From a virus, in IMG/VR virus record IMGVR_UViG_3300045988_113806, positions 1 to 56,035 of that record: DNA of 56,035 nt. One strand, written 5' to 3'. The number at the start of each line of letters is the position of its first letter. The stretch's first letter is position 1. Positions 35,507-54,592 of this stretch are shown here, one piece after another. A program made the position numbers and the translations under genes. The notes under the pieces were generated by a model. It was not told the DNA's origin. It did no database searches and worked only from the letters and a program-made list of their open reading frames with translations.

Positions 35507-36151
35507 TTATTCCTGATTATGGAATAAATTTTCATCGTACATGTAGTTTCCGTCGATGCCGTAGCCGTTGTAGTTGTCAGTCCACTGCCAGACATAACCG
35601 GAGATATCGTCTTCGGGCCCCCACTCGGCGTTCCAGACTGGGCAGCCCAGGGAACGCCAGTCGATGGCGCTGGTCAGCCAGCTGTAAGAAGCGTAGACGC
35701 CCCAGTTAAGCCCGATTTCCTTGCCAAAAGCCTTACACATGGCAGTGACGGTTGCGGGATCAGGCGCCCATCCCGGGTCCTCTGCATCAGCATCATCGGG
35801 ATCCGGGAGGGTAGCCGGGTCCCTTGGAAAGTTGTGCTGCTCTTTCCAGTGATCTGCGTCTTCCATATCGTAGAATACCGGCAGTTCCAGGAACACACCG
35901 GCTTCCTCGATGGCCGTCTTGCAGTTCCAAGCATTTTCTCTTGCGTCTTCAATGCTCAGAGAATAGTCATAGTGATACGCGCCTACAAGCATCCCATGGG
36001 CGTGAGCAGCATCTACATTTGCTTTGAAATTTTCATCTCTTCCATGCTTGCCGTAGGAGCAGCGAACGTAGCAGAACTTTACGCCTTCGGCCTCAAGCGT
36101 ATCCCAGGGAATATAGCTGTTATTTTCAGAAACGTCGATGCCTAAAATCAT
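35507..36151 (-). CDS. endolysin, glycoside hydrolase family 25 (muramidase), single domain
   Basis: MILGIDVSENNSYIPWDTLEAEGVKFCYVRCSYG... GH25 N-terminal signature. Confidence 0.85.
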   Translation of the reverse strand: MILGIDVSENNSYIPWDTLEAEGVKFCYVRCSYGKHGRDENFKANVDAAHAHGMLVGAYHYDYSLSIEDARENAWNCKTAIEEAGVFLELPVFYDMEDADHWKEQHNFPRDPATLPDPDDADAEDPGWAPDPATVTAMCKAFGKEIGLNWGVYASYSWLTSAIDWRSLGCPVWNAEWGPEDDISGYVWQWTDNYNGYGIDGNYMYDENLFHNQE

Positions 36152-39200: not shown

Positions 39201-42200
39201 TTGCAGAATAACACATCTTCTCCAGGCGGGTTGTTTGATGGTATTCAGGACGTTGGCAACGGTTACTGTATCCGCCTTCCCTTTAATGGCCTCCAGTGCT
39301 TTATCATTTTCTTCCTTAGTCCGGTAATATGGATCAAAGACAACGTTTTCCACGCCGTGTTTTTGTTTCAGATAGTCGGTCGTCACGTTGTATTTTCCGC
39401 CGCCGATATCGATGTTTCTCGTTCCCTGCTTCCAGGGGATGGTCTTGAACATGGCCGGGACCTGCTTCGGAGAAGTCTCTGCATCGTATTCCTGTTGCTC
39501 AGCCGTATTGGAAGAATGGTTAGAGGCGGCGTTCATAGCTGCATCATTGATTTCCGCAGAACGATTCCATACGTTCCCTTCCGCCACTTTGCGCATGACG
39601 TTGTGGACGTTTTCAACTCCGGTCAGGATGGCCTTCGCTTTGCTCACAAAGTCGTTGACTTTCTGGAACAGCTTCCCGTAATAGGATCCTTTCCCTTCGG
39701 TGCGCTGCTTCTTCCATTCCTTGTAGCCGTCTGCCATAGCTTCGCTTACCGTCTTTCCTCCGGTGTGCTTGCTATAGTATTTGGTCATGGCCGCCTTTTC
39801 CTTGTCATTGAGGGCCATATCCCATGCTGCATGGAAGGCTTCATGGTACGCGGATCCAGTGCTGCTTTCCTGGGAAAGGGCAATAACGGCATCGCTGTTC
39901 AGGGTAGGCTGCTTGTAGTAGCCTTCTACCACGATGTTGTCAGCATCCGCCATTCCATGTTCTTTCCGGGCCTTCTTTTCGGCCTGTTCCCCTACAATGA
40001 TGTTCTTTTGCAAGTCAACGGTGATGGTCCCGGCTGCTGTCTTCACTTTCATTTGAGAGTCGTTAATATCACTGATTTCTGACTGAGGGAAGGCATCACG
40101 CACTTCCTGCTTCAAGCTGTCCAGGGAGCGCTGGATATTGGTATCGGAGGATTCATTGTTCTCATTCAGTGAATCAGCGTAATCAGTTTCGGTTGGACTG
40201 GCAGAAGCGTTTTCTTCTTCACGAACGGAATACCGCTTGCCATCATCGGATAAACGGTCCGGCATACTGATATTTTCCAGATTATCAAAGAGTTCGTTGA
40301 TAGAATCGCCAGGAAGGTCGAATGTTCCATCAGCAAGGGATGCTGCCTTGCTTCTCAAGTCCGGGTCGGAATACTTGTCAATAACAACAAGTTTGGTTCT
40401 GACAGCGGTTCCAGCCCGTTTAAAGGTAATATCAGGCAGATTGATGGTTGCCATAATGACGCCATCTCTAACACCTCTGTCCTGCCACCGGCTTGCGTCC
40501 GGATCGCCATTGAACCATTTGTCGAACCGTTTGTTGGCGGCCGGTCCGTCCGGGATAATGGCAATCAGACGGCCTCCATCCTTTAAGTGCTTGTAGGCTT
40601 TTGCGACATGTTCTATTGCGGTCTTGCCGCCCAGCCCGAACGGAGGATTCATAACAATTCCGTTGAACTTATTGTGCAGGTCCATCAGCTCAAAACCGCT
40701 CTTAAAGAGCTTAACGTTGTTGACGTTGCGCATAAGGCGTGCTTGAAGAACGTTGGAAGGTTCAACAACGGTATTGGAAGTGTTGTTCGGCATCCACCTA
40801 GCAATAGCGCCGTCACCGGCAGACGGTTCCAACAAGCTGTCTCCGGGCTGAGCATGAAGCCATTCAACCATCTTTTCACCCAGAGGTTCCGGAGTAGCAA
40901 AATAATCAATGCCTTCCCGGCTTTTGGCTCTGGCATCTTTTTTTTGTTTCCCGAAATAGAACGCCTTGGCACGGTCAAAGTCATCCATGGTTTCCTGCTG
41001 ATAGTCGATTTCCTTGCCGCCTGTACCTTCTGTTTTACTGCCCGGCAGATACTTTTTCCAGTCATCGCTGTCCTGTGATTCTTCATAGGCTTGCACATAG
41101 GAATTTTTCAGAGCTCTGGCGTTCTCGCCCATGGCAAGGTTTTCAACCGTCCCCGCGCGTTCTGCCACCTTCTGCGCAAATGCCATTTGTTCGAAGTTGG
41201 TTCCAGTATTCAAGTACCGGAACAGGGCATTGGACTTGTTACCGAAGCGGTAAATACGTCCTTCCTGCTGAATAGCCTCACTTGGTTTAGTAGGCAGGCC
41301 CAGGTTAATGAGGACTCTCTGGTGCTTGCCGGTCGTATCATGGAGGGAAATACCAGCCTGCCCGGCATCGGACTGAACAAGAATGATCTTAATCGGGCTG
41401 TCATCGTTGTTAAACGCTTTAATGGCCGCGCTTCTTTCCTTTTTGGAAAGGGTGCCATTGTAGATTGCAATACTCTTTCCAAAAGCGTCACTCAGTGTCT
41501 CAATGGGAGATTTCAGAGAGGAAAGTTTCAGATGAAGTAAATCCGGTCTTTCGTTAATGAAACTTTCATATTGCCTGGTTAATGCAGCTTGTCTTTCAGG
41601 TTCGATTTGAGAAAACGCTTTTTCCGGGAGGATGAAAGGATTATCCGCACCGCCTTTGTTAAAGTTATGGAAAACAACAACCTTTTTTCCTTCTTTAACG
41701 TAGTCTTTGATGATGGGAATAGTGCTCTTTGCCTTGATTGCCTCCAGCAGATAGAATCGATAGAATCCACGGAAGCGCTGGTTCAGAACGTCCGCAAGTG
41801 CATCATACTTTTGGTAATGATCGCTCAGCCAATTAAAACCATCGTCAATCTTTTTGCCTACACCGGCATCCACACGGATGAAGCCGCGGTCATAGTCATA
41901 GTCGGAAGAAAGCATCCGGCCATGGAGTGCTCCGCTTTTCATCATCTTTTCGTTGAAAGATTGTTCCATGACGGTGGAATCCACATCTGCGCCAGGTCTG
42001 TTCAGCTGATTGTAGCGCATACTGTAGCCGAAATTCTCGATATAGAATTGCTGTTTCCCGTTCGAGCGGTTATACCCCTGCTGCTCCATGGGGCCGTAGT
42101 CGCTGTAGTTGAACAGGTATCCGTTGGCATAGTCCAGGTCATTGACATACTGGAAAGGCGTTGCGGACAGGAAAAGGGCCTTGGATTTGGGGCGTTTCTT

Positions 42201-45200
42201 GTACAGTTCTTCTTCCTTGCGGCGGAGCTTATCGTATTCGTTATATGCCTTGTTGTAGGCATCTTCCTTGTCCTTGATGGCCTCTCTCAGCTCTGCCAGG
42301 GTTTCTCCGGGGTTCAGCGTCCTGCTGGCAAGGCGGGTTTCGAGTTCGTTCAGCTCGTTTCTCTTATTGGTAATATCTTCGTATTCTTTGGTGTATTTAT
42401 CTTCAAAGTATCTATAGAATCCATCATCGTGGGCGGACATGGCTCTTACGGCGTTCAGGGCCTTTGTGGGTTCGGCTTTTGCACCGCTCATCAGTTTGTG
42501 GCTTTCGTCACAAACAATCAGGTCCCAATTCCGTTTGGTAATTTCCTTGTTCTCACCAGCATTGGCATAAGTGGTGGTAACGGGGCCTTTCCCGCTGTCC
42601 GTTGTATCTGCCAGCCGGGTCAGCTTGATACCGAAGCTCTTTTTAGCTGCTTCTTCCCAACCTTTCAGAATATCGTCAGAGGGTGCCAGGACAATGACGT
42701 TTTGTTTTCCTGCATCATAAAAGCGCTTTACAACACCCATGCCGGTGTAGGTTTTCCCCGTCCCGGTGCCATTGGTGAACATCATGCCATTGGCTTTTTC
42801 CAGACGGTCCTCGGCCAACATAACATCGTTGACCTGCTCCGGCGCAAGCATTGGAAGCGCTTTCTTCAATTCATTCAGTTTTTGGTTGATCTCTTTTTCC
42901 TGAGCTTTGGTTACAGGGCTTTCATGCTTGGGTCTGTCTTTAACAGATTTAACAAGCTCTTCAGGTCCTTTTCGTCCATCATCGGGAGCTCCTGCATAGC
43001 TATCTGCAATGCTTCCTGGTAGTTTAGGACTTCCGGCGCGTCTATCTTCGGATTTTTCAGCTTGTACTGTGCTATTGCCAGTCTTTCCGCCAGCAGAGGT
43101 GCCACTATCTGAAACGCTACGATTGCCAGTTCCGTGTTCTTCGGGTCCTTCTCCTGTCTTTTCACGATTTTGTCCGCTTCTTCCATCGGATCCGGAGCCT
43201 TGAACACGACTTTCCCCCATTGTGTTTTCACCGGGCCCTTTGCCAGCTCGTGGAGCCACTCCGGGAACGCTGCTTTTAACATTCTTTTCAGCCCCTTTCT
43301 TGCCAGTTTCTTCTGCTTTCATTATACCATTTTCCGGTTTCCCGTTGTCTTTGTTTTGCTTGGTTTCGCTGGCAGTAACCTTCTCGCCTTTATTAGCTGC
43401 CTCGTTTCTGAGCCCTTCATAAAGATCATGAACATAAGGCTTCATGGCGGTTTTTAATGCGTTTCTTTTGTTGAGCAAATCTGCAAAGTCATCAATCGCC
43501 TGCTGATTCTTTTGGTCATAGGCAGCATTGTAAATGTCAAGTGCTTCTTCTTCCGCACCGCCCAGCATGCCTAATTCGAAATCTTGTTCAGTGCTATTCT
43601 TTGCTACTATTGCCAAATTCTTATCCGCACGCAGATTATCTCTGATTTGCTTGATTCCTTTGTCGAGAGAATAATCTTTCAGCAAATCTTCATAGGGCTT
43701 TTTAGCTGTTTTCTTCGCTTTCTCCTGGGCTGGAGCGGGGGCCGCTTCTTCCTTTTGCTTTTCTTGAACCGGTTTATTCTCGATTTCGGGTACGTCTACC
43801 GCGTCATGCCTTGCATCTTTCAAAAATGCGTCACGGTCTGCATCCGTATTGAATACCCATCCGCGTTCACCGCCGAATTTAGAATAATGGCCCTTGTGCT
43901 CTTTGGCCAATTTATTTGCTCTTTTAAATTCTCCATTGAGAACACTATACCCTTTTTGGATACCAACACGGGCCCAGGTTCGGCCGCTTCCGCTGTCGGT
44001 TACGGAGTCGGAAAAATAGTGGTCATTCCCATAGCGTTGCTGTTTTGTATCTACGGCTGGTTTGGCTTCCGGAGCAGGTTTGGTTTCTGCTTCTACAGCC
44101 GGTTCTGCTTCCTGCTGGTTTTCTACTTTAGCCGTGCTGAGTGCTTCTTCCTGGCTGTTTGCTGTCTGGCTGGCTTCCGTTGCACCGCCTGTAGTATCAT
44201 TCGCAGCATTGGCTGTAGAATCTTCTGCCCCGACTTGGGCCTTTTTCCATTCTGCATAGCCGTTCATGAAAGCCATCCTGGAATTGTAATAGGTGTCCGC
44301 CAGATCATCAGCCACACCTTGCGCTCTGCTTGTAAAGTTGCCCCAGTCTGTGTCGGGTGCTTTAAGCGGGCCATATTGCGGATTCATCATGACGGGGAAT
44401 GTATCTTTATATGCCTCTTTGAAAGTCGGGAACATATATTTTCCTACAATCCCTCTATTAATCGGGTGCATGTTGAAAATACCCGCTTTAGTGTCTACAG
44501 CCAGCTTCTTGATTTTTTCAGGAGCCTGCTTATCAAAGTCGCGAAGGTCAAACTTCATGGTACGTTTAACCAGCTCATTCTTTTGCTTCAATGCTTTGTC
44601 AGCGGGTCTGACCATGCCGGTAACATAAATATCGTTGCCGAACACTTTTGCCGTCTGCTTATAGTCATGATTAATGCCCTGGAAGCTGTACTCAAAGTCG
44701 GGTTTTCCTTTGGGAGCTTCCTGCACTACCTCTCCGGCTGGCTTATTGTTGACGGCTTTTTCAGCCTCCGGCTTTACGTCTTGTTCACTCTTTTCACCAG
44801 GATTCCCGGCTTCGTCTGCTTGAACTGGTTTGCTACCTTCAGCAGGAACTTCATTGTCTTCGGCTGTATGTCGTTCACGTGCGTTGCCGTTTTCACCTTC
44901 TGGATTTGCGCCTTGTTCAAGTTCGGGGTTGAGATCTTTATCCCCTTGTTCAGCGCTACTTTCCTGCGGTAACTGCGTACCCGTCTGCCCCAAAGCATAC
45001 TTTTCAGCATCCCCTTTCATCACATGGTAGGAATAATCCACTACATCAATCGGCTTGATTTGGTCCGGTGTTACGCCTTCATCCTGGAAGAGTGCGGTAG
45101 CATCTTCTTTCGGATTCCCCAACTGATTGATGATGTTGGCCATTGTCGTGAAAAATTCTGTGGTATTCTTGCTTCCACGTCCGCTTTCATCCACAAATTG

Positions 45201-48200
45201 CAGAATGGCATGGGCTTCGGGAGAAAAATCCGGAAGCAGGGCCTGCTCCTGTAAATAGATACTCAGCTTGGTATTATTCTTGCGCAGGCCATCCAGCCGG
45301 TTCCCCGCTTCTGCAATAGGACCGGTTACATTGATATTATACCGCATACCGTCCTGGATTCTCTTGTTTAAAAGAGCGAAAACAGGAGAAACCTGCACCA
45401 TAGAGGTGGTATAGCTCTTAATAGGGCTGTCGGTATCCATGGTAACAAGGTTCAGTAGACGTTCACTGCCGTCACCATAGGCCATAGCGAATACAGCATT
45501 GCGGGCGCGTTCCACTCCTTCCTTGCTGGGTTCCATTCGGTCATTCAGGAGCGGGTTCAGCTTATTGGGATCACCGCCCGTTATATCTTTCAGGACAGAA
45601 AGAACATAGTCGTTTGCATTGGCTGTGGTAACCAGGGAATGAGAAGTATTGTCGATGAATCTTTCAAGTGTGGAATCCTTGACCTTTTTAGAGTCAAGCA
45701 CAGCCCGTTCGGCTGCGTTCATTTCAGCTCCGCCGACTTTGGAGATAATAATCTTTTCCATCTCGTCCGGACTTGCGTTGACTTCTCTAACAAGGACAGG
45801 GTTCTTCATCTTATCAACAGCAGCAGGGTTCAGTCCCAGTCTTTGGGCGTTCGCTTTCAGGGCCTTCTTATAAGCCGCGCCCCTGCCGTTTCTATAGGCC
45901 GCCTTGATCCCCATGGCGCGGCCATTCCCATTCAAGACAATTCCGTTGGAATTGACTACGGGCGCGCCGGTATTAATCATCTGACTGTCCATCAGTCTGC
46001 CGGGGTCCAGCTTATTGGAGATGGAAATAACCTGCTGACGCATGGTAGCATTGTTTCTGTCTCTGGGCTGGAACTGGGAAGGATAGGCCGGGTTCGTCCG
46101 GATATTCATTCCGCTGTCCGTATCGTGAGAAACTACCAGGTCGTTGGCATCTGCCAGCCGGTATTGTGCTTTGTATTTGGTCTGATCGTCGCTTTCGATG
46201 GTTGTAGTATTTCCTCTGGGGCTATTGGCATACCGCTGTTCCTGTGCGCCAGAATTAGTTACAGGCGCGTTTTCCTGCATACTGGAGGGATTTACCGTGC
46301 TACTGCTTTCCGTGGCCTGTGCGGGTGCCTGGGGAGCCTGCTGGAGCATTTTAGGTTGCTCACGCACCATATCTTCCAGCGCTTTCCGGTCCCATTCGCG
46401 GATTTTACTGAACAGGTCCGCCGCCTTTTGGTCCCCCTGCATAGCACGTTGAGCCAGGTTAATAAGGCCGTTGCTGTAGCCGTTGGGGTTATTGACCGTA
46501 CTCACATTGTAGGGGGTGTATACCTGTCCCATGAAAGGACGGTGAATAAACGGGATCCGGTTCAGATTCTCGAACGTGGGGAGGGTTCCCTTTTTCTTTT
46601 GGGCAGTCGTGGTTGTGGTAGCAGTCTGTTTCTGGACTTGCGGACCGGCAGCCGGACTTTTCAAGTTGCCGTTTGAAAGGCCCATTTCGTCCCGGAGCTC
46701 AGAAAGGATACGGTTGGTTTCTGCGTCCTGAGCATCATTCTGTTTCTTGACTGCATTATAAACGGATTCAATGACGTTTGGATTCTTGCTGGTCAGTGCT
46801 TCATCAATGGCGTTGTTCAGGTCCGGATCATCAAACTGGCGCTGATTCTCTTTCAGGTAATTCAGCTTGTCCTTGGTGTCTTTAGCCGTGGTGAATACAT
46901 CTTCAATCTTACTGGGGTCATTGGAACCAAGAGCATCATCAATGGTATCCTTCATTCCAAATTCGTCAAATTCCCGCTGATTCTCTTTCAGATAATCCGT
47001 CATATCCTTCAGGGAAATACCGCTGACGGTGCTGCTTACACCGCCTCTGGAACGTCTATTGCTACCTCCGTTGTAGTTGGTGAAATCCAGGTCCAAATGG
47101 CCGCCTGTGGAATTGGGAGAAGGATTTTCGTATTCGTCCAGAACTTCAATCCCGCGCTTCTCGCACTCTTCGATGAAAGCATGGCGCTTTTTAGCATCGT
47201 CCAATACACCGCCAGACACATCCAGCTTCACACCGGCATAGTGGGAATGAGGGCCATCCGCATGGACTCCGGAATCGTTGCCGGACGTAACGGTCAGGGG
47301 AACGCCAAAAGTGTTGTAGTACACATCGGCAATATCCGCCAGGCCCGCTTTAGTAACATCCTGCACGTTTTCCACGTCCACGGAATCATCCAGCCGGTCC
47401 CAGGTTTTTCCTTCTGTGTTCACCATCATTTCAGGAGTAAAGGAAGAAACAGCAGAGGAAGAACCACCGCCGTTCTGCATCTTGCTCATGACAGAGGCTA
47501 CATACTCATTGACAGAAGGGCCTGTGCTTTGAGGAGCATTGAAAGAGTATTCGTTACCTTCATCATCAATCCCGGTGGTCAGACCTTCGGCGTAGCGTTT
47601 ACCATTCTGTTCCCCTGCGTACCAGGCAACAGCAGCACCCTCCGGGCCGTAATCCCGTACATACTGTTCCAGCTTGTGCTTTGCGGTGGCGTTGTAATCA
47701 TCCACGTTGTTCATATCGCCAACATGGCCTAACGCTTCCGTGGACCATTCTTCCCAGTTGGAGGGGAGAATCTGCATGGATCCGTATGCACCGGTGGAGC
47801 TGTTGACTGCTTCCGTATCCCCGCCGCTCTCCTGCCCGGTAATCGCGCTGGCAAGGTCATCGGTCAGGCTGGAAATATCTTCACCGGAGGAAGCCGGGGC
47901 GGCTGCTTCTTCGTTCTGAGAAGATACCGTTTCTTCCGGTCCTTCGGTTGCGGTGGTGTCGATGGTTTCATCGAGAGCGCTGCCACTAGGCCCGTTGTTA
48001 TTATTCTCAGGCCCGCCGTTTTCGGGAGTGGGTCCGTTTTCATTCGGATCATTGGGATTAAAGTCTCTGGCATCAACATCATTGACATCACGGTCAGCCC
48101 ATCTCCGGGCAATACGGCTTCCCAGGGCACCCGCACCACCGAATAACATACCAGGACCCATAGCGGCCATAGCTTCGTCTTTCTGGCCTTGTGTCCATTC

Positions 48201-49121
48201 GAAAGGATCAACTACACTGGTCAGGCCACCAGGCTGCTTTCCTTTTGCGTAATCGCTGGCGCCTCTCTGCATACCTTCTTCCCAGGATTGCTGTGTTGCA
48301 CCACCGACAACACCGGCAGCCCCCAGGGCCGCTTTTCCCATTTTGGAGGTTACGTTTTTACCGAACATGGTCCCTAATCCCATGGATTCAGCGGTATTGG
48401 AAAGAGCCAGGAGCGGAGTCTGTATCAATGCGTTCACGGCAGCTGCTTTTTTCAGCTGATCCGGATCCGTGATACCTTCTTCCTCCATATCCTGGATTAC
48501 GTTACCGGATTCGCTGGCCACTTCAATAGGAGTCTTTGCGGCGTTTGCAACAATAAGGCTGCCGTATTTACTGGACAATGCTCTGGAAAGGGAGGGCAGC
48601 CCGTGAGCTGCTGCCTTTCCTGCAAAGTAATTGGCTAAGGTACTTAAATTGCCGACACCGGCAGCTCCGGCCATGGTGCCTAATGCTGCGGTTTCAGCTC
48701 CCATCATTAAGGCAGAACCTGTCATGTTCCCTGCATCATAAGCAAGGCCCTGGGGGTCCGTGATGTATGCCATGGGGTTGGAAGTGATGGTGTCAAAGTT
48801 CCAGTTATGGGTACGGGTGTTTCTCTTTGCAATTTCGTTGAGGTCATTGGCCATATCCCCGCCCATTCCCAAGAAAGTGTCGGAAAGGGTGGCCTGGCCG
48901 GACAGAACACCGGACGCACCGGCCTTAATACCGGAAAGAATGTTGTCCAGGAAACCGGCGTTTGCAAAGTTTTCCTCTTGAGAAAGTGGGGCGTCAGCAT
49001 CGCTGCGCCCCGTAATAGGATTGTAATAATACTCTTTATCTTCAATGGCACCGGTGTTAGGATCAACACCGTAAAACTCGTTTTCCTCTTTATCGATTTG
49101 TTCAAAAGGATCAAAAGCCAT
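36225..49121 (-). CDS. giant (4298 aa) multidomain virion-internal/ejection protein. It combines a lytic transglycosylase, an M15-like peptidase, an SF2 (SNF2/DExH) helicase, an N6-adenine DNA methyltransferase, an HExxH motif and C-terminal membrane segments.
   Basis: SLT motif GQESGGDTEAVNSSTGAYGSMQILPSNW. Peptidase-like SGNDSGVHADGPHSHYAGVKLDVS...GGHLDLDF. Helicase motif I TGTGKTYTG, motif II LIVCDESH, motif III LFLSATP, motif VI QQEGRIYR. MTase motif I LEPSAGDGAI, motif IV VMNPPFG. YHEAFHAAW. Hydrophobic GMYFLLAGVMQVPV / LARIAMYGLLAARPV. Confidence 0.75.
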   Translation of the reverse strand: MAFDPFEQIDKEENEFYGVDPNTGAIEDKEYYYNPITGRSDADAPLSQEENFANAGFLDNILSGIKAGASGVLSGQATLSDTFLGMGGDMANDLNEIAKRNTRTHNWNFDTITSNPMAYITDPQGLAYDAGNMTGSALMMGAETAALGTMAGAAGVGNLSTLANYFAGKAAAHGLPSLSRALSSKYGSLIVANAAKTPIEVASESGNVIQDMEEEGITDPDQLKKAAAVNALIQTPLLALSNTAESMGLGTMFGKNVTSKMGKAALGAAGVVGGATQQSWEEGMQRGASDYAKGKQPGGLTSVVDPFEWTQGQKDEAMAAMGPGMLFGGAGALGSRIARRWADRDVNDVDARDFNPNDPNENGPTPENGGPENNNNGPSGSALDETIDTTATEGPEETVSSQNEEAAAPASSGEDISSLTDDLASAITGQESGGDTEAVNSSTGAYGSMQILPSNWEEWSTEALGHVGDMNNVDDYNATAKHKLEQYVRDYGPEGAAVAWYAGEQNGKRYAEGLTTGIDDEGNEYSFNAPQSTGPSVNEYVASVMSKMQNGGGSSSAVSSFTPEMMVNTEGKTWDRLDDSVDVENVQDVTKAGLADIADVYYNTFGVPLTVTSGNDSGVHADGPHSHYAGVKLDVSGGVLDDAKKRHAFIEECEKRGIEVLDEYENPSPNSTGGHLDLDFTNYNGGSNRRSRGGVSSTVSGISLKDMTDYLKENQREFDEFGMKDTIDDALGSNDPSKIEDVFTTAKDTKDKLNYLKENQRQFDDPDLNNAIDEALTSKNPNVIESVYNAVKKQNDAQDAETNRILSELRDEMGLSNGNLKSPAAGPQVQKQTATTTTTAQKKKGTLPTFENLNRIPFIHRPFMGQVYTPYNVSTVNNPNGYSNGLINLAQRAMQGDQKAADLFSKIREWDRKALEDMVREQPKMLQQAPQAPAQATESSSTVNPSSMQENAPVTNSGAQEQRYANSPRGNTTTIESDDQTKYKAQYRLADANDLVVSHDTDSGMNIRTNPAYPSQFQPRDRNNATMRQQVISISNKLDPGRLMDSQMINTGAPVVNSNGIVLNGNGRAMGIKAAYRNGRGAAYKKALKANAQRLGLNPAAVDKMKNPVLVREVNASPDEMEKIIISKVGGAEMNAAERAVLDSKKVKDSTLERFIDNTSHSLVTTANANDYVLSVLKDITGGDPNKLNPLLNDRMEPSKEGVERARNAVFAMAYGDGSERLLNLVTMDTDSPIKSYTTSMVQVSPVFALLNKRIQDGMRYNINVTGPIAEAGNRLDGLRKNNTKLSIYLQEQALLPDFSPEAHAILQFVDESGRGSKNTTEFFTTMANIINQLGNPKEDATALFQDEGVTPDQIKPIDVVDYSYHVMKGDAEKYALGQTGTQLPQESSAEQGDKDLNPELEQGANPEGENGNARERHTAEDNEVPAEGSKPVQADEAGNPGEKSEQDVKPEAEKAVNNKPAGEVVQEAPKGKPDFEYSFQGINHDYKQTAKVFGNDIYVTGMVRPADKALKQKNELVKRTMKFDLRDFDKQAPEKIKKLAVDTKAGIFNMHPINRGIVGKYMFPTFKEAYKDTFPVMMNPQYGPLKAPDTDWGNFTSRAQGVADDLADTYYNSRMAFMNGYAEWKKAQVGAEDSTANAANDTTGGATEASQTANSQEEALSTAKVENQQEAEPAVEAETKPAPEAKPAVDTKQQRYGNDHYFSDSVTDSGSGRTWARVGIQKGYSVLNGEFKRANKLAKEHKGHYSKFGGERGWVFNTDADRDAFLKDARHDAVDVPEIENKPVQEKQKEEAAPAPAQEKAKKTAKKPYEDLLKDYSLDKGIKQIRDNLRADKNLAIVAKNSTEQDFELGMLGGAEEEALDIYNAAYDQKNQQAIDDFADLLNKRNALKTAMKPYVHDLYEGLRNEAANKGEKVTASETKQNKDNGKPENGIMKAEETGKKGAEKNVKSSVPGVAPRAGKGPGENTMGESRVQGSGSDGRSGQNREKTGEGPEEHGTGNRSVSDSGTSAGGKTGNSTVQAEKSEDRRAGSPKLPGSIADSYAGAPDDGRKGPEELVKSVKDRPKHESPVTKAQEKEINQKLNELKKALPMLAPEQVNDVMLAEDRLEKANGMMFTNGTGTGKTYTGMGVVKRFYDAGKQNVIVLAPSDDILKGWEEAAKKSFGIKLTRLADTTDSGKGPVTTTYANAGENKEITKRNWDLIVCDESHKLMSGAKAEPTKALNAVRAMSAHDDGFYRYFEDKYTKEYEDITNKRNELNELETRLASRTLNPGETLAELREAIKDKEDAYNKAYNEYDKLRRKEEELYKKRPKSKALFLSATPFQYVNDLDYANGYLFNYSDYGPMEQQGYNRSNGKQQFYIENFGYSMRYNQLNRPGADVDSTVMEQSFNEKMMKSGALHGRMLSSDYDYDRGFIRVDAGVGKKIDDGFNWLSDHYQKYDALADVLNQRFRGFYRFYLLEAIKAKSTIPIIKDYVKEGKKVVVFHNFNKGGADNPFILPEKAFSQIEPERQAALTRQYESFINERPDLLHLKLSSLKSPIETLSDAFGKSIAIYNGTLSKKERSAAIKAFNNDDSPIKIILVQSDAGQAGISLHDTTGKHQRVLINLGLPTKPSEAIQQEGRIYRFGNKSNALFRYLNTGTNFEQMAFAQKVAERAGTVENLAMGENARALKNSYVQAYEESQDSDDWKKYLPGSKTEGTGGKEIDYQQETMDDFDRAKAFYFGKQKKDARAKSREGIDYFATPEPLGEKMVEWLHAQPGDSLLEPSAGDGAIARWMPNNTSNTVVEPSNVLQARLMRNVNNVKLFKSGFELMDLHNKFNGIVMNPPFGLGGKTAIEHVAKAYKHLKDGGRLIAIIPDGPAANKRFDKWFNGDPDASRWQDRGVRDGVIMATINLPDITFKRAGTAVRTKLVVIDKYSDPDLRSKAASLADGTFDLPGDSINELFDNLENISMPDRLSDDGKRYSVREEENASASPTETDYADSLNENNESSDTNIQRSLDSLKQEVRDAFPQSEISDINDSQMKVKTAAGTITVDLQKNIIVGEQAEKKARKEHGMADADNIVVEGYYKQPTLNSDAVIALSQESSTGSAYHEAFHAAWDMALNDKEKAAMTKYYSKHTGGKTVSEAMADGYKEWKKQRTEGKGSYYGKLFQKVNDFVSKAKAILTGVENVHNVMRKVAEGNVWNRSAEINDAAMNAASNHSSNTAEQQEYDAETSPKQVPAMFKTIPWKQGTRNIDIGGGKYNVTTDYLKQKHGVENVVFDPYYRTKEENDKALEAIKGKADTVTVANVLNTIKQPAWRRCVILQAAQALKKDGTAYFQIYEGDRSGVGNATEKQQSYQNNMKTSEYVGEIQDYFKDVGRKGNVIIAKNPDFNPNDKAVWSMDDLATDDVAFSVRNAADNLKTKLKGDKNERIKVAVNDVVREMSITQSLLRSPSYIAEHVKRFAAFFKMAVKAQATQEHLRNLFNKQLNRIHHLYLHSKQDVQDWANLLWQGDAEGKEYSRKDLQDMGVAENVANAYSATRAMINHVYNMLNETRNHVETIQKRMTKPELKNLMQDKFADITRLEDRGPAKKGSLEHEYLVTYKRSKTWKTTDTVDAKMLKQLKSDPNIQVLSEEKKGKNYEVVYEERRGDIHKLEGYIPHFFHDFFVIAKDENGNNVVVGSGRNIKDAYKKAEAYIKEHPEYADNVTIAPKSFNFGDNEHARAVEIGDGQYFEMVKKCEDQLNMTMKEAREFLEDKVKTKNRHRFFGNFLQRKGALGFEENIDWVLHHYLNAASRYIALEPFKSGSISLFERYFGAWNKDYNDNQLAHYVKDYINDVNGDPNSIEMRINEWLNSIPFWRDFVSSKFGDRAALELTNRITSTISVAKLGFCNVSSALLNLGQIVNAYGITGDMKATLKAGGHALRPSFKDMRILHDCGIQDDIRLDAGAGGYTAFRPRALLSKTMGVFSFFDTYSRKVAALSGFYHAISEGKNYNEAIEYARMVNRKSNFDYSPVDAPAAFRKVQGSVIGDLMLQFQKYKVKELELMHDITINGPKGKALKFWGMYFLLAGVMQVPVTDWFNDLFKQILGIDYKLKIKGAIMDAAGDSEIGRGLARIAMYGLLAARPVNIDISQRFGMGDFILPPKSTLVDILGGPTLSTITQMYIGIHNNDPLQVLKGFSPALGNYAQVLLGKTVDKKGRTMRGLDSTYDKIVKAVGFRLADESINSDISQVKRQRQSELQEERQGFIRSLLDKEEAGEPRTAEDVQKMKEFGITNKKLKQYRNQRNSSFNERVSKTGSKKFRESNDALMNFAQ

Positions 49122-49135
49122 TGTTCACACTCCTT

Positions 49136-51211
49136 TTATAATCCGAAAGCCTCCCAGTCAGTATCGTTGAACAGCTTTTTAGCAAGGTCATTACCGTAAC
49201 GCTTTCTGGCTGCTTCCATCATGCCTTCCTTGTCCAAGCCCTGATCCCCGGCCTGTTGATTGTATTGCAGGGCCTGTGTCCATTCGCTCATCTTTAAGCG
49301 ATAGATATTATTCTGTGTGGGGTCCGGTCTGTCTCCATAAATGCTTTTATACGCATTGTCTCCTGCTTTTTGGAGCCAGGAGAAGAAACCGCCAGAGGAA
49401 TCGCCACCACCAGGAGAAGGCTGGGCCGGTGTCTCGGCTTCGGGAGGCCCATTCCATGTTCCAATCCCCGTTTGCCGTACAGCAGCATCAATTAAGTAAC
49501 TGATTTCATCCGGACTGAGGTTGTTCTCAATACTAGATAGGTATTGATAAATTTCATCTGGACTGGTTTTCCCGGTTTTCAATACTGTGCCGATTGCCCC
49601 AATCAGTTTGTTTTTAGCTGCTGTGCTGGGCTTCGGGTCCTCTCCTACGGTTGTATCACCGTAGGCCACAGAGGTTTGCCGGAGCAGTTCACCTACGGTT
49701 TTTGGTTGTTTCAAGCTGCCGGTAAGTCCACTCCGGGAACTGCCGAGTCCTTTGCCCAAGGCAATCTGTACAAGTTGTTCCGGTGTAGCGTTCGGATAGA
49801 TTTTAGCGGCGAGGGAAACACGGTTGGCAATTTTCTGCTGTTCTGCTTGCAGGGCCAAATTGGTTTTGTATCTTGCCATTTCCTTGTTGATTTGTAAATT
49901 GAATTTGGCAAGGTCTTTGGTGTTTTGCAGGTTATCTTTTGCAAATTTCTCTTTCTGTGCAAACTGATGGTCCGACTTTTTGTACCACTGTTCGTTCTGC
50001 CACAGAGTCGGATAAAATACCGCGTTCTTCAGGAACAGGTTTGCCGCCTCCGGATTATCTTTGAAAAGTTGTACAATCTTCTCCTGGAACTGTGCGGTAG
50101 TCGGGTCCGCTGTCAAAAGGTCTTTCAAGTCAAGCTGCGTATTATGGTCTTTCACTTTCTGATCGTAGGAGTCGGCCATCATTTCCAGGGTAGACATGGT
50201 TTTGGCAATCCGGTCCTCGTCAAACCCATCTTTTAACATAGCAAGGCGCTGTTGCATCAGCCATTTGGTCTTGTCAAATTCCATCCGTTCGTTAGGGTCC
50301 TGTTTAGGGACCGGCTGAGGGGGCGGGAGCTGGCTTGCAGCTGCCGTGGACTGCTGTTGCTGATCCGCAGCAGGGGCCGGTGCTACCGGCTGAGCAATAT
50401 TGCCCCCTGCGTTCACGGTATCAAGCATCTGTTGAACTGCCGGGTCTCCTGCGTTCTGCTGCAAGGCGTTCCCTACCTGCTGGAGCTCCTGAGCCTGCCG
50501 GAGCTGGAAATTGGAGGGGATAATTGCTTCCGGAGACGTATCTACCGCAGCCCCGCCAACTCCATTCGTGTTGGCTGTATCAGCGGGGCTTGACTGAAAA
50601 AAACCGTTGCCGGAAATCCCTAAACCGGGTTGCTGCCCGTTTCTAATCTGCTGTTCCAGTTCCAGCTGGTCAAGAACCTGCATACGCGGATCCTGCTGAT
50701 AGTCGGTAGAACCGATAGAAATAGCGGGCTGCTGCTGAGTCACTACTGCGGCAGCCGGGGCGGTTTGCGCGGCCGGGGCTGTGTTCCCGGAAATGCCGAT
50801 TGCACCGGCAGCACCCGGAACGCCGTTGATTACATTTGCGTCATTCTGCATGCTCTGTTCCCATGCTTTCTGGGCTGCCGGGTTGTCCTGCAAGGGGACA
50901 ATCTGCTGAGCACTGGGAATGGAAGTGTCGCCGATGGAAAGCTGGTCCAGGGCCTGAGCCTGCTGTTCAGGAGTGACAGTCGGTTCGAATCCGTTCAGGG
51001 AAGCTGCTGCGTTCTCCAGGATTTTCTGTTCTCCGCGCTTATTGTAGTTATCAGCCAGAGTGGAACCGGCCATATATCCCAGTGCAAAGTAGGGATCACT
51101 GTAGGCCAGTTTGGTCCAGTTGACCTGCTGCTTGGTGTTTCTCGGCGCATATTTGGCATAAGTGTTCGTTGTAGTATTCGTTGCCATTTCTTTCCTCCCG
51201 ATGATTACCAT
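49136..51211 (-). CDS. virion-internal/ejection protein candidate (691 aa; Gln/Ala/Pro-rich)
   Basis: position between the Hint protein and the giant protein. Confidence 0.45.
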   Translation of the reverse strand: MVIIGRKEMATNTTTNTYAKYAPRNTKQQVNWTKLAYSDPYFALGYMAGSTLADNYNKRGEQKILENAAASLNGFEPTVTPEQQAQALDQLSIGDTSIPSAQQIVPLQDNPAAQKAWEQSMQNDANVINGVPGAAGAIGISGNTAPAAQTAPAAAVVTQQQPAISIGSTDYQQDPRMQVLDQLELEQQIRNGQQPGLGISGNGFFQSSPADTANTNGVGGAAVDTSPEAIIPSNFQLRQAQELQQVGNALQQNAGDPAVQQMLDTVNAGGNIAQPVAPAPAADQQQQSTAAASQLPPPQPVPKQDPNERMEFDKTKWLMQQRLAMLKDGFDEDRIAKTMSTLEMMADSYDQKVKDHNTQLDLKDLLTADPTTAQFQEKIVQLFKDNPEAANLFLKNAVFYPTLWQNEQWYKKSDHQFAQKEKFAKDNLQNTKDLAKFNLQINKEMARYKTNLALQAEQQKIANRVSLAAKIYPNATPEQLVQIALGKGLGSSRSGLTGSLKQPKTVGELLRQTSVAYGDTTVGEDPKPSTAAKNKLIGAIGTVLKTGKTSPDEIYQYLSSIENNLSPDEISYLIDAAVRQTGIGTWNGPPEAETPAQPSPGGGDSSGGFFSWLQKAGDNAYKSIYGDRPDPTQNNIYRLKMSEWTQALQYNQQAGDQGLDKEGMMEAARKRYGNDLAKKLFNDTDWEAFGL

Positions 51212-52341
51212 TCATTGGTAGCACCGATAGCCACGAAGCCATTGGCGTAATACCGGTTGTCGCCTGTCAGTTTCATGTCGTATACTCTTGCTTCTTCAAG
51301 TGGAGCATAACCGAAAATGCGGGCCGTCCCTTTGTCGGTGAGAATGGTATCACCGGCATGGAGCTCTTTCAGGGTTGCCAGGGTGCCGTCTTCCTTCACA
51401 AAAGGCTGGGTGAATGTGGTGTCCACTTTGAACACGTCGTCGCCGTCAAAGGCAATCAGCCGGTAGGTATCGGCTCTGCCGTTCTTTAATACATCTACAA
51501 CGGTTTCAACGCTTTCTTTCCCGCCTTTGGAAGGACAAATAACCTTGTCGCCTGCTTTAATTGCGGAAATCTTTTTGGTTCCTTCCGGTGTCTTGATTTT
51601 CGTGTTCCCTGCAAAGCAGAAAATACCGCCGCTGTTGGAAGCGTAGCCAGCCAGCAGGCCACCAAACAGGCCGCTTCCTCCGCTGGTTTTCTGTGTAGCG
51701 GTCGTTGTTCCCTGACCAGATACACCGGCAAGCGCGCTGTTAGTTGCTCCATTGAGCCCCAGAGAAGCGTTCCAAAGGTTGAGTGCGGGCTGCTGTGCGG
51801 CTTCCTGTGCGGCAGCTCCAGTAGTAATACCGGCGTTCGCTCCGCTCATCTGCTGCCCGTAAAGCTGGCTCAAAAGGCCGATGTTACTGGTGTATGCATT
51901 GGCCATGGCCTGAGAAGCAGCATCATTAATGTCTGCAATTCCCCTGTTTGTAACGCTGGAGTTCAGCACACCATTACTGCCTAATGTGTTCAGCATATTT
52001 CCCATGGAAGAATTGACTCCCTGCTGGATCTGGTTCTGCATATTCTGGGTATATGCCGTAGGCAGCTGTCCATTAATGAGGCCCTGCACACCCTGCTGAG
52101 CGCCGGCAATCTGCCCCTGGGCCGACTGGTTTAATCCGTTGAAGTCAACCTGTGTGGAACCGATGGAATCCTGGAGGATGTTCCTGGCAACATTGTTCAG
52201 CCACAAGGCGTTAGGCGCTACAGCTTCGGAGTAATCAGCTGCCTGGCGTTGTAGCCTTCTTTCTTCTGGTGTCGGCGTGTAGCTCTGGACCGTTGTGTTG
52301 CTGGAGCCCTTTTTATGGAGCTGTAAAACTAAATCAAACAT
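51205..52341 (-). CDS. virion protein with Gln/Asn/Gly-rich N-terminal region and C-terminal Hint (Hedgehog/intein-like) domain
   Basis: GGIFCFAGNTKIKTPEGTKKISAIKAGDKVI ... ends ...DNRYYANGFVAIGATNEW. Confidence 0.55.
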   Translation of the reverse strand: MFDLVLQLHKKGSSNTTVQSYTPTPEERRLQRQAADYSEAVAPNALWLNNVARNILQDSIGSTQVDFNGLNQSAQGQIAGAQQGVQGLINGQLPTAYTQNMQNQIQQGVNSSMGNMLNTLGSNGVLNSSVTNRGIADINDAASQAMANAYTSNIGLLSQLYGQQMSGANAGITTGAAAQEAAQQPALNLWNASLGLNGATNSALAGVSGQGTTTATQKTSGGSGLFGGLLAGYASNSGGIFCFAGNTKIKTPEGTKKISAIKAGDKVICPSKGGKESVETVVDVLKNGRADTYRLIAFDGDDVFKVDTTFTQPFVKEDGTLATLKELHAGDTILTDKGTARIFGYAPLEEARVYDMKLTGDNRYYANGFVAIGATNEW

Positions 52342-52348
52342 TCATTCA

Positions 52349-52837
52349 TCACTCGCTTTCCCTGGAAAGGTTTGGAGCTTCGTGGCCCATGTACTCCGTT
52401 ACCCAGTAATCAGGACGGTGGGAAATCTCATTGATTCCCTTGAAGGTAATCACCACATATCTGTCCAGCTTATCCTTGCAGATGTATCGTTCCTGTCCGT
52501 TGATATGCTGTTCCTTGATAATCTTCCATCCCCAGAAACGGATATACGGTCTGATCCGGCGCGTGCAAATGGTGCTGATACATTTCAGGCCGTTCTGTCT
52601 GCAATACATTTCTGCCAGGTCTCTCCAAAATTTAGCATCCCCGCACAAGTCGTAGATAACAAAGATGCCTGTATCCGCCTCCGGTTTCATGACACAAATC
52701 CCGCGGTCCTCTAGAAAGTTGAGTGTAAAGCCGGGTGGGACTGATACATAGTCTCCCGTCTTTTGCTTGTATAGGGCCATCCATTCTTCAAACGTCCTTG
52801 CGTTCGCTCTCGTGACCTTCTTCTTTTCCGTTTCCAT
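52349..52837 (-). CDS. hypothetical Cys-rich protein (~163 aa from METEKKK); the track ORF 52349..53044 has an out-of-frame 5' extension
   Basis: the first ~69 codons of the track ORF are Arg/Lys-rich junk that overlaps the upstream membrane gene. Confidence 0.4.
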   Translation of the reverse strand: METEKKKVTRANARTFEEWMALYKQKTGDYVSVPPGFTLNFLEDRGICVMKPEADTGIFVIYDLCGDAKFWRDLAEMYCRQNGLKCISTICTRRIRPYIRFWGWKIIKEQHINGQERYICKDKLDRYVVITFKGINEISHRPDYWVTEYMGHEAPNLSRESE

Positions 52838-53234
52838 CTTCCGTTTCCTTTCCTCCTTCCATTCTTTGTTCCTGCTTCGGCCCGCAGTCAGCCCCGGCCC
52901 GTTTGGGCGGTGGCGGTGCTGGCCGGTCTTTGTTGTTGCCTGTTTCCCACGTATCCGGGATTCCATCTTCGTCCTTATCCACCAGGGCTTTTCCCAGCAC
53001 GCAGAAAGTACCGACAACGGCCACTCCGAAATAGGTCCCTGCAAACTGGTTGACTGCCGGGTAATTCACTTTCCCGGTAGTCCAAAATTCCAGCAGGAGC
53101 CCAACTAAATAGAGGCTTCCCACACTGATGAAGATTCCCGCATAAAGCAGCAGGAACAGCCTTGGAAGTCCCGTGATTTTCATTTTGGTTAAGCCCTGGT
53201 TAAGGACCCTTATCCATTTTTGTATTCCGTTCAT
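52788..53234 (-). CDS. membrane protein (3 TM) with DKDEDGIPDTWE Ca-binding-like motif
   Basis: hydrophobic segments; C-terminal low-complexity tail may be an overlap artefact. Confidence 0.4.
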   Translation of the reverse strand: MNGIQKWIRVLNQGLTKMKITGLPRLFLLLYAGIFISVGSLYLVGLLLEFWTTGKVNYPAVNQFAGTYFGVAVVGTFCVLGKALVDKDEDGIPDTWETGNNKDRPAPPPPKRAGADCGPKQEQRMEGGKETEDGNGKEEGHESERKDV

Positions 53235-53242
53235 AGCGTGCC

Positions 53243-54592
53243 TCAGTTCTCGCCTGCATAAAGGTTGATGAAGCCAATCGCAATATTTCCATTTGTCTCA
53301 ATCCCCAGGACTGAATCCCGGCATACGGAAAAGCAGTGAACCACCCGGCGCTTTCTCCCCACCTTGAAAAGAACGTTTTTATTCGCCCATTTGAGGTGTA
53401 GCGTTCCGCTGCCGGTCACAGCCACATCAAACTTTCTTGTGATAATGCTTGTAGAGGACGAGAGTTGCCGTGTGACGAGTTTTTGCTCTATGGGGGTACC
53501 GTTATCTGTCGTGTACCGTTTTGCCCATCTGTAGAGCGAATTTCCGCCTGCTATGATGATTCCGTCCTGCGTATCTGCCATATCCTTTATGTCCATGGGA
53601 AAAGAAAGCTCTACACAGGCCCCCATATCATACTGGAGGCAGTACAGGTTCCCGGTGTTGGTCTTGGTATTCGGCTGGATAATCAGCTGCCGTTTGCGGA
53701 CCAGATTGTACAGCCGGGGCTGGTTCACTTCCTGTTCCAGGTTCCGGTTGAACTTTCTTCCCAGTTCGTTGATGGTAAAGTTCCCGTAGTTCTGTACGGC
53801 TTCCAGAGTCCGCAGGCCCTTATTGGTGCAGAAGGCTATGGTGCTTCCCAGAACGATGATCCCGTCTGCTGTCAGCACGTCCGAATTATCCCCGGCAAGA
53901 GAAGTATTCCAGCTGGTGTAGAAACCGTTGGTGTTGTACACCTTCCCGTTGCTCTTGAAAGTGGCAATATCGCCGCTGATCGGGAGGACTTTCAGAATAT
54001 CCCCATCATCTTTGTAGCCAACTTCCAGCCATTTAGATGAGCTGTCAGAATCAGTATCTTCTTTCCAGCCATCTTCATAGGGATTGCCGGTAGCGGAGTA
54101 ATAGATATTGTCATCTCCCATGCAGGAAATAACCAGCCTGCTCATGCTCTCCCAAACATAATCACAGTTGTAGGACGCTTCGATGGTTGTCACCGTATGA
54201 GCGGAAGGATCATAATACTGCAATTTTCCACCGCTTGCGATAAACACTTTCCCGTCAAACCGGCAATAGTTAGGCTTCCGGTTGCCGGTTAGTGTTCCCA
54301 CCTTGTTATGCAGGGTATCCAGATTTTCTTCCCAGATGGAACCGTCAGACAGACACACAAGGAATTGGTTCAGGCCGTTGTTGTAGAACACAGAAAGGAT
54401 TTCCTTGTCATAGGTCACAAGAGGGGCGGAAAGGCCGCCCCTTGTCACCAGCCGATTAAAGTCGTATTCGAAATTCTGGATAACCTGATATTCGTTTTCC
54501 TGGAGCTGTTGGGGAGGGACGGCGGTATTAATACCGCCAGTGAAATCAGAACATGAAAGAATGTTGATATTCTTCTTTTCCATCGCTGCCAT
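53243..54592 (-). CDS. tail/baseplate structural protein (449 aa, beta-rich repeats)
   Basis: position; repeated Y/W-G beta-strand motifs. Confidence 0.45.
   Translation of the reverse strand: MAAMEKKNINILSCSDFTGGINTAVPPQQLQENEYQVIQNFEYDFNRLVTRGGLSAPLVTYDKEILSVFYNNGLNQFLVCLSDGSIWEENLDTLHNKVGTLTGNRKPNYCRFDGKVFIASGGKLQYYDPSAHTVTTIEASYNCDYVWESMSRLVISCMGDDNIYYSATGNPYEDGWKEDTDSDSSSKWLEVGYKDDGDILKVLPISGDIATFKSNGKVYNTNGFYTSWNTSLAGDNSDVLTADGIIVLGSTIAFCTNKGLRTLEAVQNYGNFTINELGRKFNRNLEQEVNQPRLYNLVRKRQLIIQPNTKTNTGNLYCLQYDMGACVELSFPMDIKDMADTQDGIIIAGGNSLYRWAKRYTTDNGTPIEQKLVTRQLSSSTSIITRKFDVAVTGSGTLHLKWANKNVLFKVGRKRRVVHCFSVCRDSVLGIETNGNIAIGFINLYAGEN

Follow-up and report, generated by a model that had tools for sequence, protein, structure and literature searches.

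Hedgehog-type Hint domains and B-type bacterial intein-like domains (BILs), both of which perform N-terminal cleavage only, are the described systems closest to the predicted behavior of the phage protein considered here. In Hedgehog proteins, the Hint domain is C-terminal to its cargo, the junction reads GCF with Gly at the −1 position, and the N-terminal Cys of the domain cleaves the chain through a thioester with no splicing; an additional Asp/His in the active site activates cholesterol. The Hog-Hint segment additionally carries a C-terminal sterol/adduct-recognition region, and BILs are non-intein Hint domains in non-conserved proteins that undergo N-terminal cleavage, the A-type having a highly conserved C-terminal His-Asn and the B-type being without the intein C-terminal motif (PMC7765530). 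Hint domains reported from phages have been ordinary inteins within enzymes, such as terminase and ribonucleotide reductase. The DNA analyzed here is a 56,035-nucleotide viral sequence (IMG/VR record IMGVR_UViG_3300045988_113806, hereafter the window), in which an open reading frame (ORF) at 51205–52341 on the minus strand encodes a 378-residue protein with a Hint domain at its C-terminus. Comparative evidence makes it likely that this domain removes itself by Cys242-dependent autoproteolysis after Phe241 and serves as a pro-domain for the hydrophobic C-terminus of an ejection protein in the T7 gp14 position. On this reading, the gene product would be the precursor form of an "ejection" protein, a small internal protein made by a temperate phage with a short tail that infects diderm Firmicutes.

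To our knowledge, a Hint domain has not been described on any gp14-like protein. In the searchable literature, which may not cover all work, nothing was found that connects terminal Hint domains with virion or ejection proteins of phages; mentions of a "Hint domain" in the phiCbK and CBB papers were rejected as precedent, being ordinary inteins. A few members of the family are already labeled "Hint" or "Hint domain-containing protein" by database pipelines, and no study of them was found in the same literature. The architecture and the biological setting are new for Hint autoprocessing, and the active site is His-less throughout the family.

The Hint domain and its nearest relatives

Translation of the ORF gives a precursor of 39.6 kDa followed by a stop codon, and the plus-strand frame of the same interval is full of stops. 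An identical 378-residue protein is called on four metagenome contigs. The Hint domain (residues 242–378, 137 residues, 14.9 kDa; 51208–51618, minus strand) is supported by Pfam, AlphaFold2, Foldseek and the ratio of nonsynonymous to synonymous substitution rates (dN/dS). It opens with CFAGNTKIKTPEG at residues 242–254, and the protein closes with YYANGFVAIGATNEW directly before the stop. A preliminary description of this DNA, which left the strand unstated, had reported the same ORF with the same Hint start and end, and all of these are borne out.

The Pfam search that this description had proposed as a check returned PT-HINT (PF07591) over residues 249–368 with a score of 34.5 bits (E 2.8e-8; gathering cut-off 27.7). 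PT-HINT was the sole Pfam model above its gathering cut-off; Hint_2, Vint and Hint matched block A alone and fell below theirs. The nearest solved sequences are the BIL domain of C. thermocellum (2lwy; phmmer E 5.5e-6), whose alignment pairs TTFTQPF of the phage protein with TTFDHPF, and the gp41-1 mini-intein. An AlphaFold2 model computed from a 48-sequence alignment has a predicted local distance difference test score (pLDDT) of ∼90 across residues 241–370. When this model was compared with the PDB by Foldseek, all matches with probability 1.00 were Hint folds: BIL2 from the Tetrahymena BUBL locus (6y75), gp41-1, 2lwy, the DnaB, RecA and DnaE mini-inteins, and Hedgehog (1at0). Target TM-scores were between 0.74 and 0.88 for BIL2, gp41-1 (0.88), 2lwy and the DnaB and RecA mini-inteins. 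By fold and Pfam score, residues 242–378 belong to the HINT superfamily, and agreement of this degree greatly exceeds chance. The domain is the only Hint domain in the window, and PHROGs and NCBIfam gave no family for this protein or for the neighboring proteins.

BILs (2lwy and Tetrahymena BIL2) are thus the nearest solved relatives by both sequence and fold. However, they occur inside longer proteins and still have the block B His, whereas the phage domains are terminal, His-less and encoded in a structural operon. The phage family differs from A-type BILs in having no His-Asn; its missing C-terminal motif is consistent with a B-type BIL, but it is also without the block B His. The signature TxxH is common to inteins, Hog-Hint domains and A-type BILs, and the phage family keeps its Thr without the His. 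The Hedgehog domain 1at0 is matched by fold (Foldseek E 2e-7) at 14% sequence identity, and the arrangement of cargo and Hint is the same, but the phage protein has no sterol-recognition region, carries Phe or Trp rather than Gly at −1, substitutes Gln for the block B His and comes from a bacterial/phage setting. The preliminary description had called the domain Hedgehog-type with a canonical Hint block. It is not a member of the Hedgehog family; block A is indeed canonical and the Hint fold is confirmed, but the block B His is replaced by Gln. PT-HINT domains of polymorphic toxins precede a C-terminal toxin that they are thought to release, whereas in the phage case nothing lies downstream and it is the N-terminal part that would be released.

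Four uncultured-phage proteins of 270–410 residues in BFVD (A0A6J5KSY2, A0A6J5M6E1, A0A6J5NY54 and A0A6J5NYB8), whose labels name Hint, PASTA or fibronectin type III domains, are further matches to the Hint fold. Phage proteins with non-intein Hint domains may therefore extend beyond this one family.

Active site and predicted self-removal

Active-site residues were counted in 210 single-Hint family domains pooled from two database searches. The first Hint residue is Cys in 205 of 206. Block B (TTFTQP, residues 308–313; 51403–51420, minus strand) contains the conserved Thr309, present in 242 of 258 aligned domains, and Gln312 at the canonical His position, which is occupied by Gln in 203 domains, Glu in seven and His in none. 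Block F (VYD, residues 353–355; 51277–51285, minus strand) ends in Asp355, a position that is Asp in 193 domains and Glu in 11. Six of the seven members with Glu in block B also have Glu in block F, as expected if both residues share one active site. Proteins with tandem Hint domains that were found with the same profile have the block B His in 38 of 48 domains, indicating that Gln is a hallmark of the phage family and not an alignment artifact. These tandem proteins are large (660–1,435 residues), contain three to five Hint domains each (P0194, P0207, P0211, P0219, P0245, P0250, P0253, P0255, P0259, P0266 and P0269) and combine the canonical His in block B with Asn at the block F position; the N-termini of several are hydrophobic and resemble signal sequences.

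The C-terminal end of the domain limits the reactions that are open to it. A block G-like end, YYANGFVAIG, is followed by the five-residue tail ATNEW and the stop codon (51205–51252, minus strand), as established by column counts. The intein His-Asn positions are occupied by Lys, Gln, Glu or Ile (372) and Gly (373), and Asn376 is not conserved (45 Asn, 32 Asp, 15 Ala). Inteins, by comparison, have a C-extein, a His-Asn and a +1 nucleophile, all of which are missing here. The absence of His-Asn and of a +1 nucleophile and the shortness of the tail exclude splicing and Asn-driven C-terminal cleavage, leaving N-terminal cleavage as the sole remaining Hint reaction. The earlier statement that nothing follows the Hint domain is accurate to within these five residues.

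The predicted scissile bond joins Phe241 to Cys242 (51616–51621, minus strand), as judged from the conservation of the Cys and from a comparison of two orthologs described below. The −1 residue is Phe in 98, Trp in 45 and Ala in 28 of the single-Hint family domains, and a bulky residue (Phe, Trp, Met, Tyr, Leu, Ile or Val) occupies this position in ∼80% of members. In an intein with its block B His mutated to Ala, a bulky −1 residue (Leu, His or Phe) restores N-S acyl shift as well as N-terminal cleavage (PMC6333167). The Ssp DnaB M86 Gly(−1)Phe/His73Ala mutant (PDB 6fre) is a fold match to the phage domain, and the same combination of a bulky −1 residue and a missing His occurs naturally in the phage family; the mutant, however, is laboratory-made and has Ala at the block B position, which is invariably Gln (or Glu) in the phage proteins.

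We propose that Cys242 would attack the Phe241 carbonyl in an N-S acyl shift driven by strain at the bulky −1 Phe or Trp, together with the invariant Gln312, Thr309 and Asp355, in a family that has no block B His. Hydrolysis of the thioester would then release the N-terminal domain (N-domain) with a free C-terminal Phe, and the 15-kDa Hint domain would be discarded or separately retained. With no C-terminal Asn or C-extein, neither splicing nor C-terminal cleavage would follow. Up to the cut, the Hint domain would probably mask or chaperone the hydrophobic C-terminus of the N-domain until assembly. This C-terminus is a Gly-rich hydrophobic segment, SGGSGLFGGLLAGYASNSGGIF (residues 220–241; 51619–51684, minus strand), identified by its composition and by comparison with Hint-less orthologs, and it contains the most hydrophobic 19-residue window of the protein (Kyte-Doolittle mean 1.16).

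The part that would be released is a conserved helical domain rich in Gln, Asn, Ala and Gly, whose predicted mature form comprises residues 10–241 (232 residues, computed mass 23.6 kDa; 51619–52314, minus strand), as indicated by conservation, dN/dS and the model. The N-terminal 241 residues contain 12.9% Gly, 12.9% Ala, 11.2% Gln and 10.4% Asn, more than 30 positions of the N-domain are invariant among 48 homologs with 51–93% identity to the window protein, and AlphaFold2 models the domain as long helices at low pLDDT. Relative to three relatives with ∼93% protein identity, dN/dS is 0.03–0.04 for the N-domain and 0.09–0.10 for the Hint part, at dS of 0.7–1.1 overall and 0.7–0.8 for the Hint part; both parts are thus under strong purifying selection. 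Comparison with locus L031 gives a nearly identical N-domain (dN 0.045) and a highly diverged Hint domain (dN 0.45), indicating that the Hint module was swapped by recombination at the domain junction, like a self-contained cassette. The preliminary description had anticipated the Gly-rich linker, which is confirmed, and the biased composition of the N-terminal region, which also holds. It had taken the released piece for low-complexity sequence, however, and that view is not sustained: the region is far from featureless and would instead be a conserved functional product.

The strongest available argument for removal of the Hint domain comes from relatives that have none. A profile search of 1.84 billion representative proteins returned 10,944 matches at E ≤ 1e-3, 137 of them at E ≤ 1e-30. 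Their architectures include N-domain plus Hint, forms of 480–670 residues in which the helical region is duplicated, and many proteins that consist of the N-domain without a Hint domain. Of ∼85 distinct loci, 63 carry the Hint domain (Hint-plus) and 21 lack it (Hint-minus). On genome and virome contigs, the Hint-less forms are complete internal ORFs of 238–299 residues with genuine stops and the same neighbors, which ruled out that they are truncations, and they finish in the Gly-rich motif, for example ...GGLFGGLF and then a stop. The closest pair is the Hint-less locus L080 and the Hint-plus locus L088, with 95.2% identity over 227 residues of the N-domain. L088 reads ...GLAGNSGLF↓CFTENTK across the predicted cleavage site; L080 reads ...GLAGNSGLFGR and stops two residues past the −1 Phe, as if pre-cleaved. 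This comparison of natural sequences gives good support to an N-domain that ends at Phe241 as the functional form, with the Hint domain removed. The self-removal of a terminal Hint domain that the preliminary description had predicted agrees with the fold, the Cys, the purifying selection and the ends of the Hint-less orthologs.

The longer members of the family (P0122, P0131, P0142 and P0166; locus L007) contain two or three copies of the central helical region, corresponding to profile positions ∼60–180. N-domain length thus differs between members, as though the domain bridged or gauged a distance.

Predicted N-terminal leader and putative ejection operon

The first nine residues of the protein, MFDLVLQLH (52315–52341, minus strand), are a predicted leader that would be removed ahead of KKGSS, as judged by comparison with other leaders of the family. 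Leaders of 9–12 residues, such as MxFDLQLF ahead of GGKG, begin most family members, and the pattern [LIVMF]x[LIVMF]Qx[F/H] followed by KKGS or GGKG occurs in 108. A further 34 members start straight at MGKKG, as if pre-cleaved, and these natural starts support the site. Many relatives have FDLQLF↓GGKG, which is close to the cleavage motif published for Prp, the L27 protease of Firmicutes, MLxx(D/N)LQ(F/L)F'A(S/H)KK (PMC9405229); the window protein has LVLQLH↓KKGS, with His at P1. Prp also trims the capsid and scaffold proteins of phage 80alpha (PMC5744158). Removal of the nine-residue leader by a host Prp-type protease is probable. There was no match to a phage-encoded Prp for the 119-residue ORF at 7852–8211 or for nine other window ORFs, and the leader motif is absent from every other ORF in the window. 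Another leader type, longer and Cys-containing (...FCFDRxTLHCxF↓KGG or ...YFRHCRF↓KGG), is found in L022, L024, L033, L068 and L083, and likewise ends in Phe right before KGG.

According to its GenBank record, P22 gp7 loses 20 N-terminal residues to a host protease and has the mature start KGGKGG, a likeness to the leader cut predicted here. The host trimming of P22 gp7 is ascribed to OpdA, and the leader of the Hint protein suggests that it is likewise trimmed by the host. The sequence suggests processing at both ends of the Hint protein. Together the two cuts would convert the 39.6-kDa precursor into a 23.6-kDa product and a 14.9-kDa Hint fragment; with the leader still in place, the N-terminal fragment would be ∼24.6 kDa.

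The gene is flanked by genes in the order of a podovirus ejection operon, all on the minus strand. Upstream, a conserved 449-residue protein (53243–54592) was identified by AlphaFold2 (pLDDT 88; predicted TM-score 0.85) and Foldseek as a podovirus tail nozzle/hub of the T7 gp12/P22 gp10 class; it matches the Pa223 tail (E 4e-21, query TM-score 0.81) and also P22 gp10, Sf6, the SU10 tail and T7 gp12. Next is an ORF for a 148-residue protein with a hydrophobic N-terminal region (52788–53234), given its T7 gp13-like role from its position; a protein of 138–160 residues is conserved upstream of the family gene across loci. Between it and the Hint gene lies a 162-residue ORF (52349–52837) that is present in the window and in its close relatives L003 and L009 and absent in the Megasphaera prophage L001. 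It has no match in Pfam or NCBIfam, and it may be an inserted accessory gene.

Downstream, in a gp15-like position, an ORF also found by gene callers encodes a 691-residue protein rich in Gln and Ala (49136–51211; 683 residues from the gene-caller start at 51187), and an ORF of 440–940 residues follows the family gene in nearly all loci. The end of the Hint gene, GAA TGG TAA (51205–51213), includes the ATG that opens the 691-residue frame, giving a 7-nucleotide overlap (GAATGGTAA). Gene callers choose a start 24 nucleotides further downstream (MATNTTT) rather than this ATG; translational coupling of the two genes is possible. The terminal Glu-Trp of the Hint protein is conserved, perhaps because of the overlapping start codon, and distant members have other ends.

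The gp16-like position is taken by a 4298-residue polyvalent protein (36225–49121), in which Pfam finds an N-terminal lytic transglycosylase domain (SLT, residues 419–510), ddrB-ParB, ResIII/Helicase_C (an SNF2-type helicase) and a methyltransferase. A giant ORF of more than 2,400 residues follows in nearly all loci, with relatives of 2,400–4,300 residues; that of Megasphaera adds LPD1, LPD5 and MuF_C domains. At 4298 residues, the window protein is unusually large for a presumed ejection protein. Just past the giant gene are a GH25 endolysin (35507–36151, minus strand) and a large serine recombinase, the integrase (32322–33881, plus strand).

The order of nozzle, 148-residue protein, (162-residue ORF,) Hint gene, 691-residue protein and SLT-bearing giant is conserved in ∼85 loci. 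It copies T7 gp12-gp13-gp14-gp15-gp16 and so places the Hint protein at gp14, the first ejection protein; T7 gp14 and P22 gp7 share this place in the operon, preceded by the nozzle and a small protein and followed by a mid-sized protein and a large SLT-bearing one. Ejection-protein homologs are often matched by size and synteny alone, and ejection operons follow a rule of a gp14-like protein of 181–240 residues, a gp15-like protein of 431–982 residues and a larger gp16-like protein (PMC8954989). The predicted mature fragment of 232 residues is inside the published gp14-like range, next to 238–299 residues for the Hint-less orthologs. By this analogy of position and size, we favor, with some reservation, an identification of the N-domain as an ejection protein. 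The earlier guess of an internal or tail protein is reasonable, given the podovirus nozzle on one side and the transglycosylase-bearing giant on the other. A scan of 48.5–56 kb for promoters and terminators gave nothing beyond shuffled expectation, which is consistent with a single operon.

The window encodes a serine integrase, RecE/RecT, a replication organizer, TerL, a portal, a GH25 endolysin and a tail fiber, the gene content of a temperate phage. A 55.8-kb metagenome scaffold matches it almost end to end, so the phage genome is probably nearly complete. The capsid protein is of SU10 type (Pfam SU10_MCP, 204 bits), and no tRNAs were found in the window. Portal relatives among isolated phages are distant only (≤27% identity), and are mostly from podoviruses of Gram-negative hosts. 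Related prophages are found in Negativicutes: Acidaminococcus (93% identity), Megasphaera, Selenomonas, Megamonas, Anaerovibrio and Phascolarctobacterium. Hint-plus prophages occur in Megasphaera paucivorans DSM 16981, M. massiliensis NP3 and M. hexanoica MH, and a Hint-minus prophage in Anaerovibrio slackiae WCA-693-APC-5D-A. The host of the window phage is probably Acidaminococcus. Negativicutes are Firmicutes with an outer membrane, so that an infecting podovirus would need an envelope-spanning ejectosome.

Competing explanations and implications

Several findings weigh against the proposal of a self-removing pro-domain on an ejection protein. The complete loss of the block B His takes away a residue on which other Hint domains rely, and the small or polar −1 residues of ∼20% of members (28 Ala, five Asn, three Ser and two Gln) fall outside the steric-strain argument. 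The Hint-less orthologs show that the phage can do without the Hint domain, as would be equally true of an optional accessory domain that is retained. We infer the cleavage from sequence comparison alone, and the chemistry, timing, pro-domain role, virion location and leader protease are inferred with it. A tblastn search of 50,697 deposited phage genomes with the Hint protein and the 449-residue protein gave no match; no isolated phage among them has a homolog. With respect to ejection, alignment of the N-domain profile by hhalign to T7 gp13, gp14 and gp15 and to P22 gp7 and gp20 gave probabilities below 1%. Compared with T7 gp14 and P22 gp7, to which it has no detectable sequence or profile similarity, the N-domain has fewer hydrophobic segments: Kyte-Doolittle scores show one moderately hydrophobic segment in the Hint protein, compared with four to five predicted transmembrane helices in T7-like gp14. 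The ejection role accordingly draws on where the gene lies, on the size of its product and on its neighbors; only a positional analogy with known ejection proteins is claimed, and homology is not.

The same Hint-less orthologs bear on whether the thioester is resolved by water. Instead, the nucleophile might be a lipid, an amine of the cell wall or a lysine in a partner protein of the virion, leaving the N-domain covalently attached through Phe241, in the way that Hedgehog is joined to cholesterol or the BUBL ubiquitin-like domain to lysines. By fold, the domain is matched best by BIL2 from the BUBL locus of Tetrahymena, which makes an isopeptide bond via its N-terminal thioester (PMC8616854), and the Hedgehog Hint domain is also among the fold matches. 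A hydrophobic C-terminus beside the thioester would sit near membranes, and the altered active site, with its invariant Gln and block F covariation, could reflect another resolving step. Ligation is nevertheless unlikely. The Hint-less orthologs, one of them 95% identical, cannot form an adduct yet persist in the same lineages with the same synteny, which argues against any obligatory adduct; only five residues follow the Hint fold, with no region resembling a sterol-recognition or adaptor segment; and no conserved partner nucleophile has been identified. It is improbable that the terminal Phe is transferred to a specific nucleophile to give a covalently anchored ejection protein, with Gln for His as an adaptation to that chemistry; if true, this would parallel, in a phage, Hedgehog cholesteroylation or BUBL conjugation.

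The counts at the active site likewise speak to a second alternative, in which autoprocessing has been lost and the domain is kept as a structural or binding module of a virion protein. The block B His is missing in 210 of 210 members, purifying selection resembles that on an ordinary folded domain, and the domain is optional across lineages, like many phage accessory domains. This explanation also has a low probability in our estimation, as it would leave unexplained the near-invariant Cys at position 1, Thr309, Asp355 and the block B/F covariation, as well as the ends of the Hint-less proteins at the domain-boundary residue. A role that is structural and nothing more is hard to reconcile with an invariant Cys and with covariation in the active site, and experiments elsewhere have shown N-terminal cleavage without the His when the −1 residue is bulky (PMC6333167). 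Finally, a conditional latch, in which formation or resolution of the thioester would await a trigger (such as thiols, pH or a change of conformation during ejection) and the Hint domain would tether the protein in the capsid until infection, is very improbable: a weakened active site with Gln for His would slow spontaneous cleavage, thiol cleavage of a thioester is standard Hint chemistry and large triggered rearrangements are known in ejection proteins, but Hint-less relatives manage without a latch.

Autoproteolysis at Phe241–Cys242 by a removable pro-domain thus remains the likely explanation for the gene. Autocleavage domains of tailspikes and fibers are Ser-Lys type peptidases, not Cys thioester-forming domains, and are unrelated to the Hint domain in fold and chemistry. 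They provide a parallel in that a C-terminal domain of a virion protein removes itself after its job is done (PMC8326128).

If the proposal is correct, this would be the first described case in which Hint/intein chemistry matures a phage particle or ejection protein. It would add more than 200 diverse natural Hint domains that, provided they are active, dispense with the "essential" His of block B and combine an invariant Gln with a bulky −1 residue. They would be a natural counterpart to a compensation known only from inteins that were engineered, and compact N-cleaving tags might be derived from them. The close Hint-plus and Hint-minus alleles are a ready genetic system for the role of a self-removing pro-domain in ejection-protein assembly, and isolated lysogens (Megasphaera, Anaerovibrio) exist for experiments. 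The locus also sheds light on uncultured, widespread temperate podoviruses of gut Negativicutes, with their presumed polyvalent ejection proteins of 2,400–4,300 residues.

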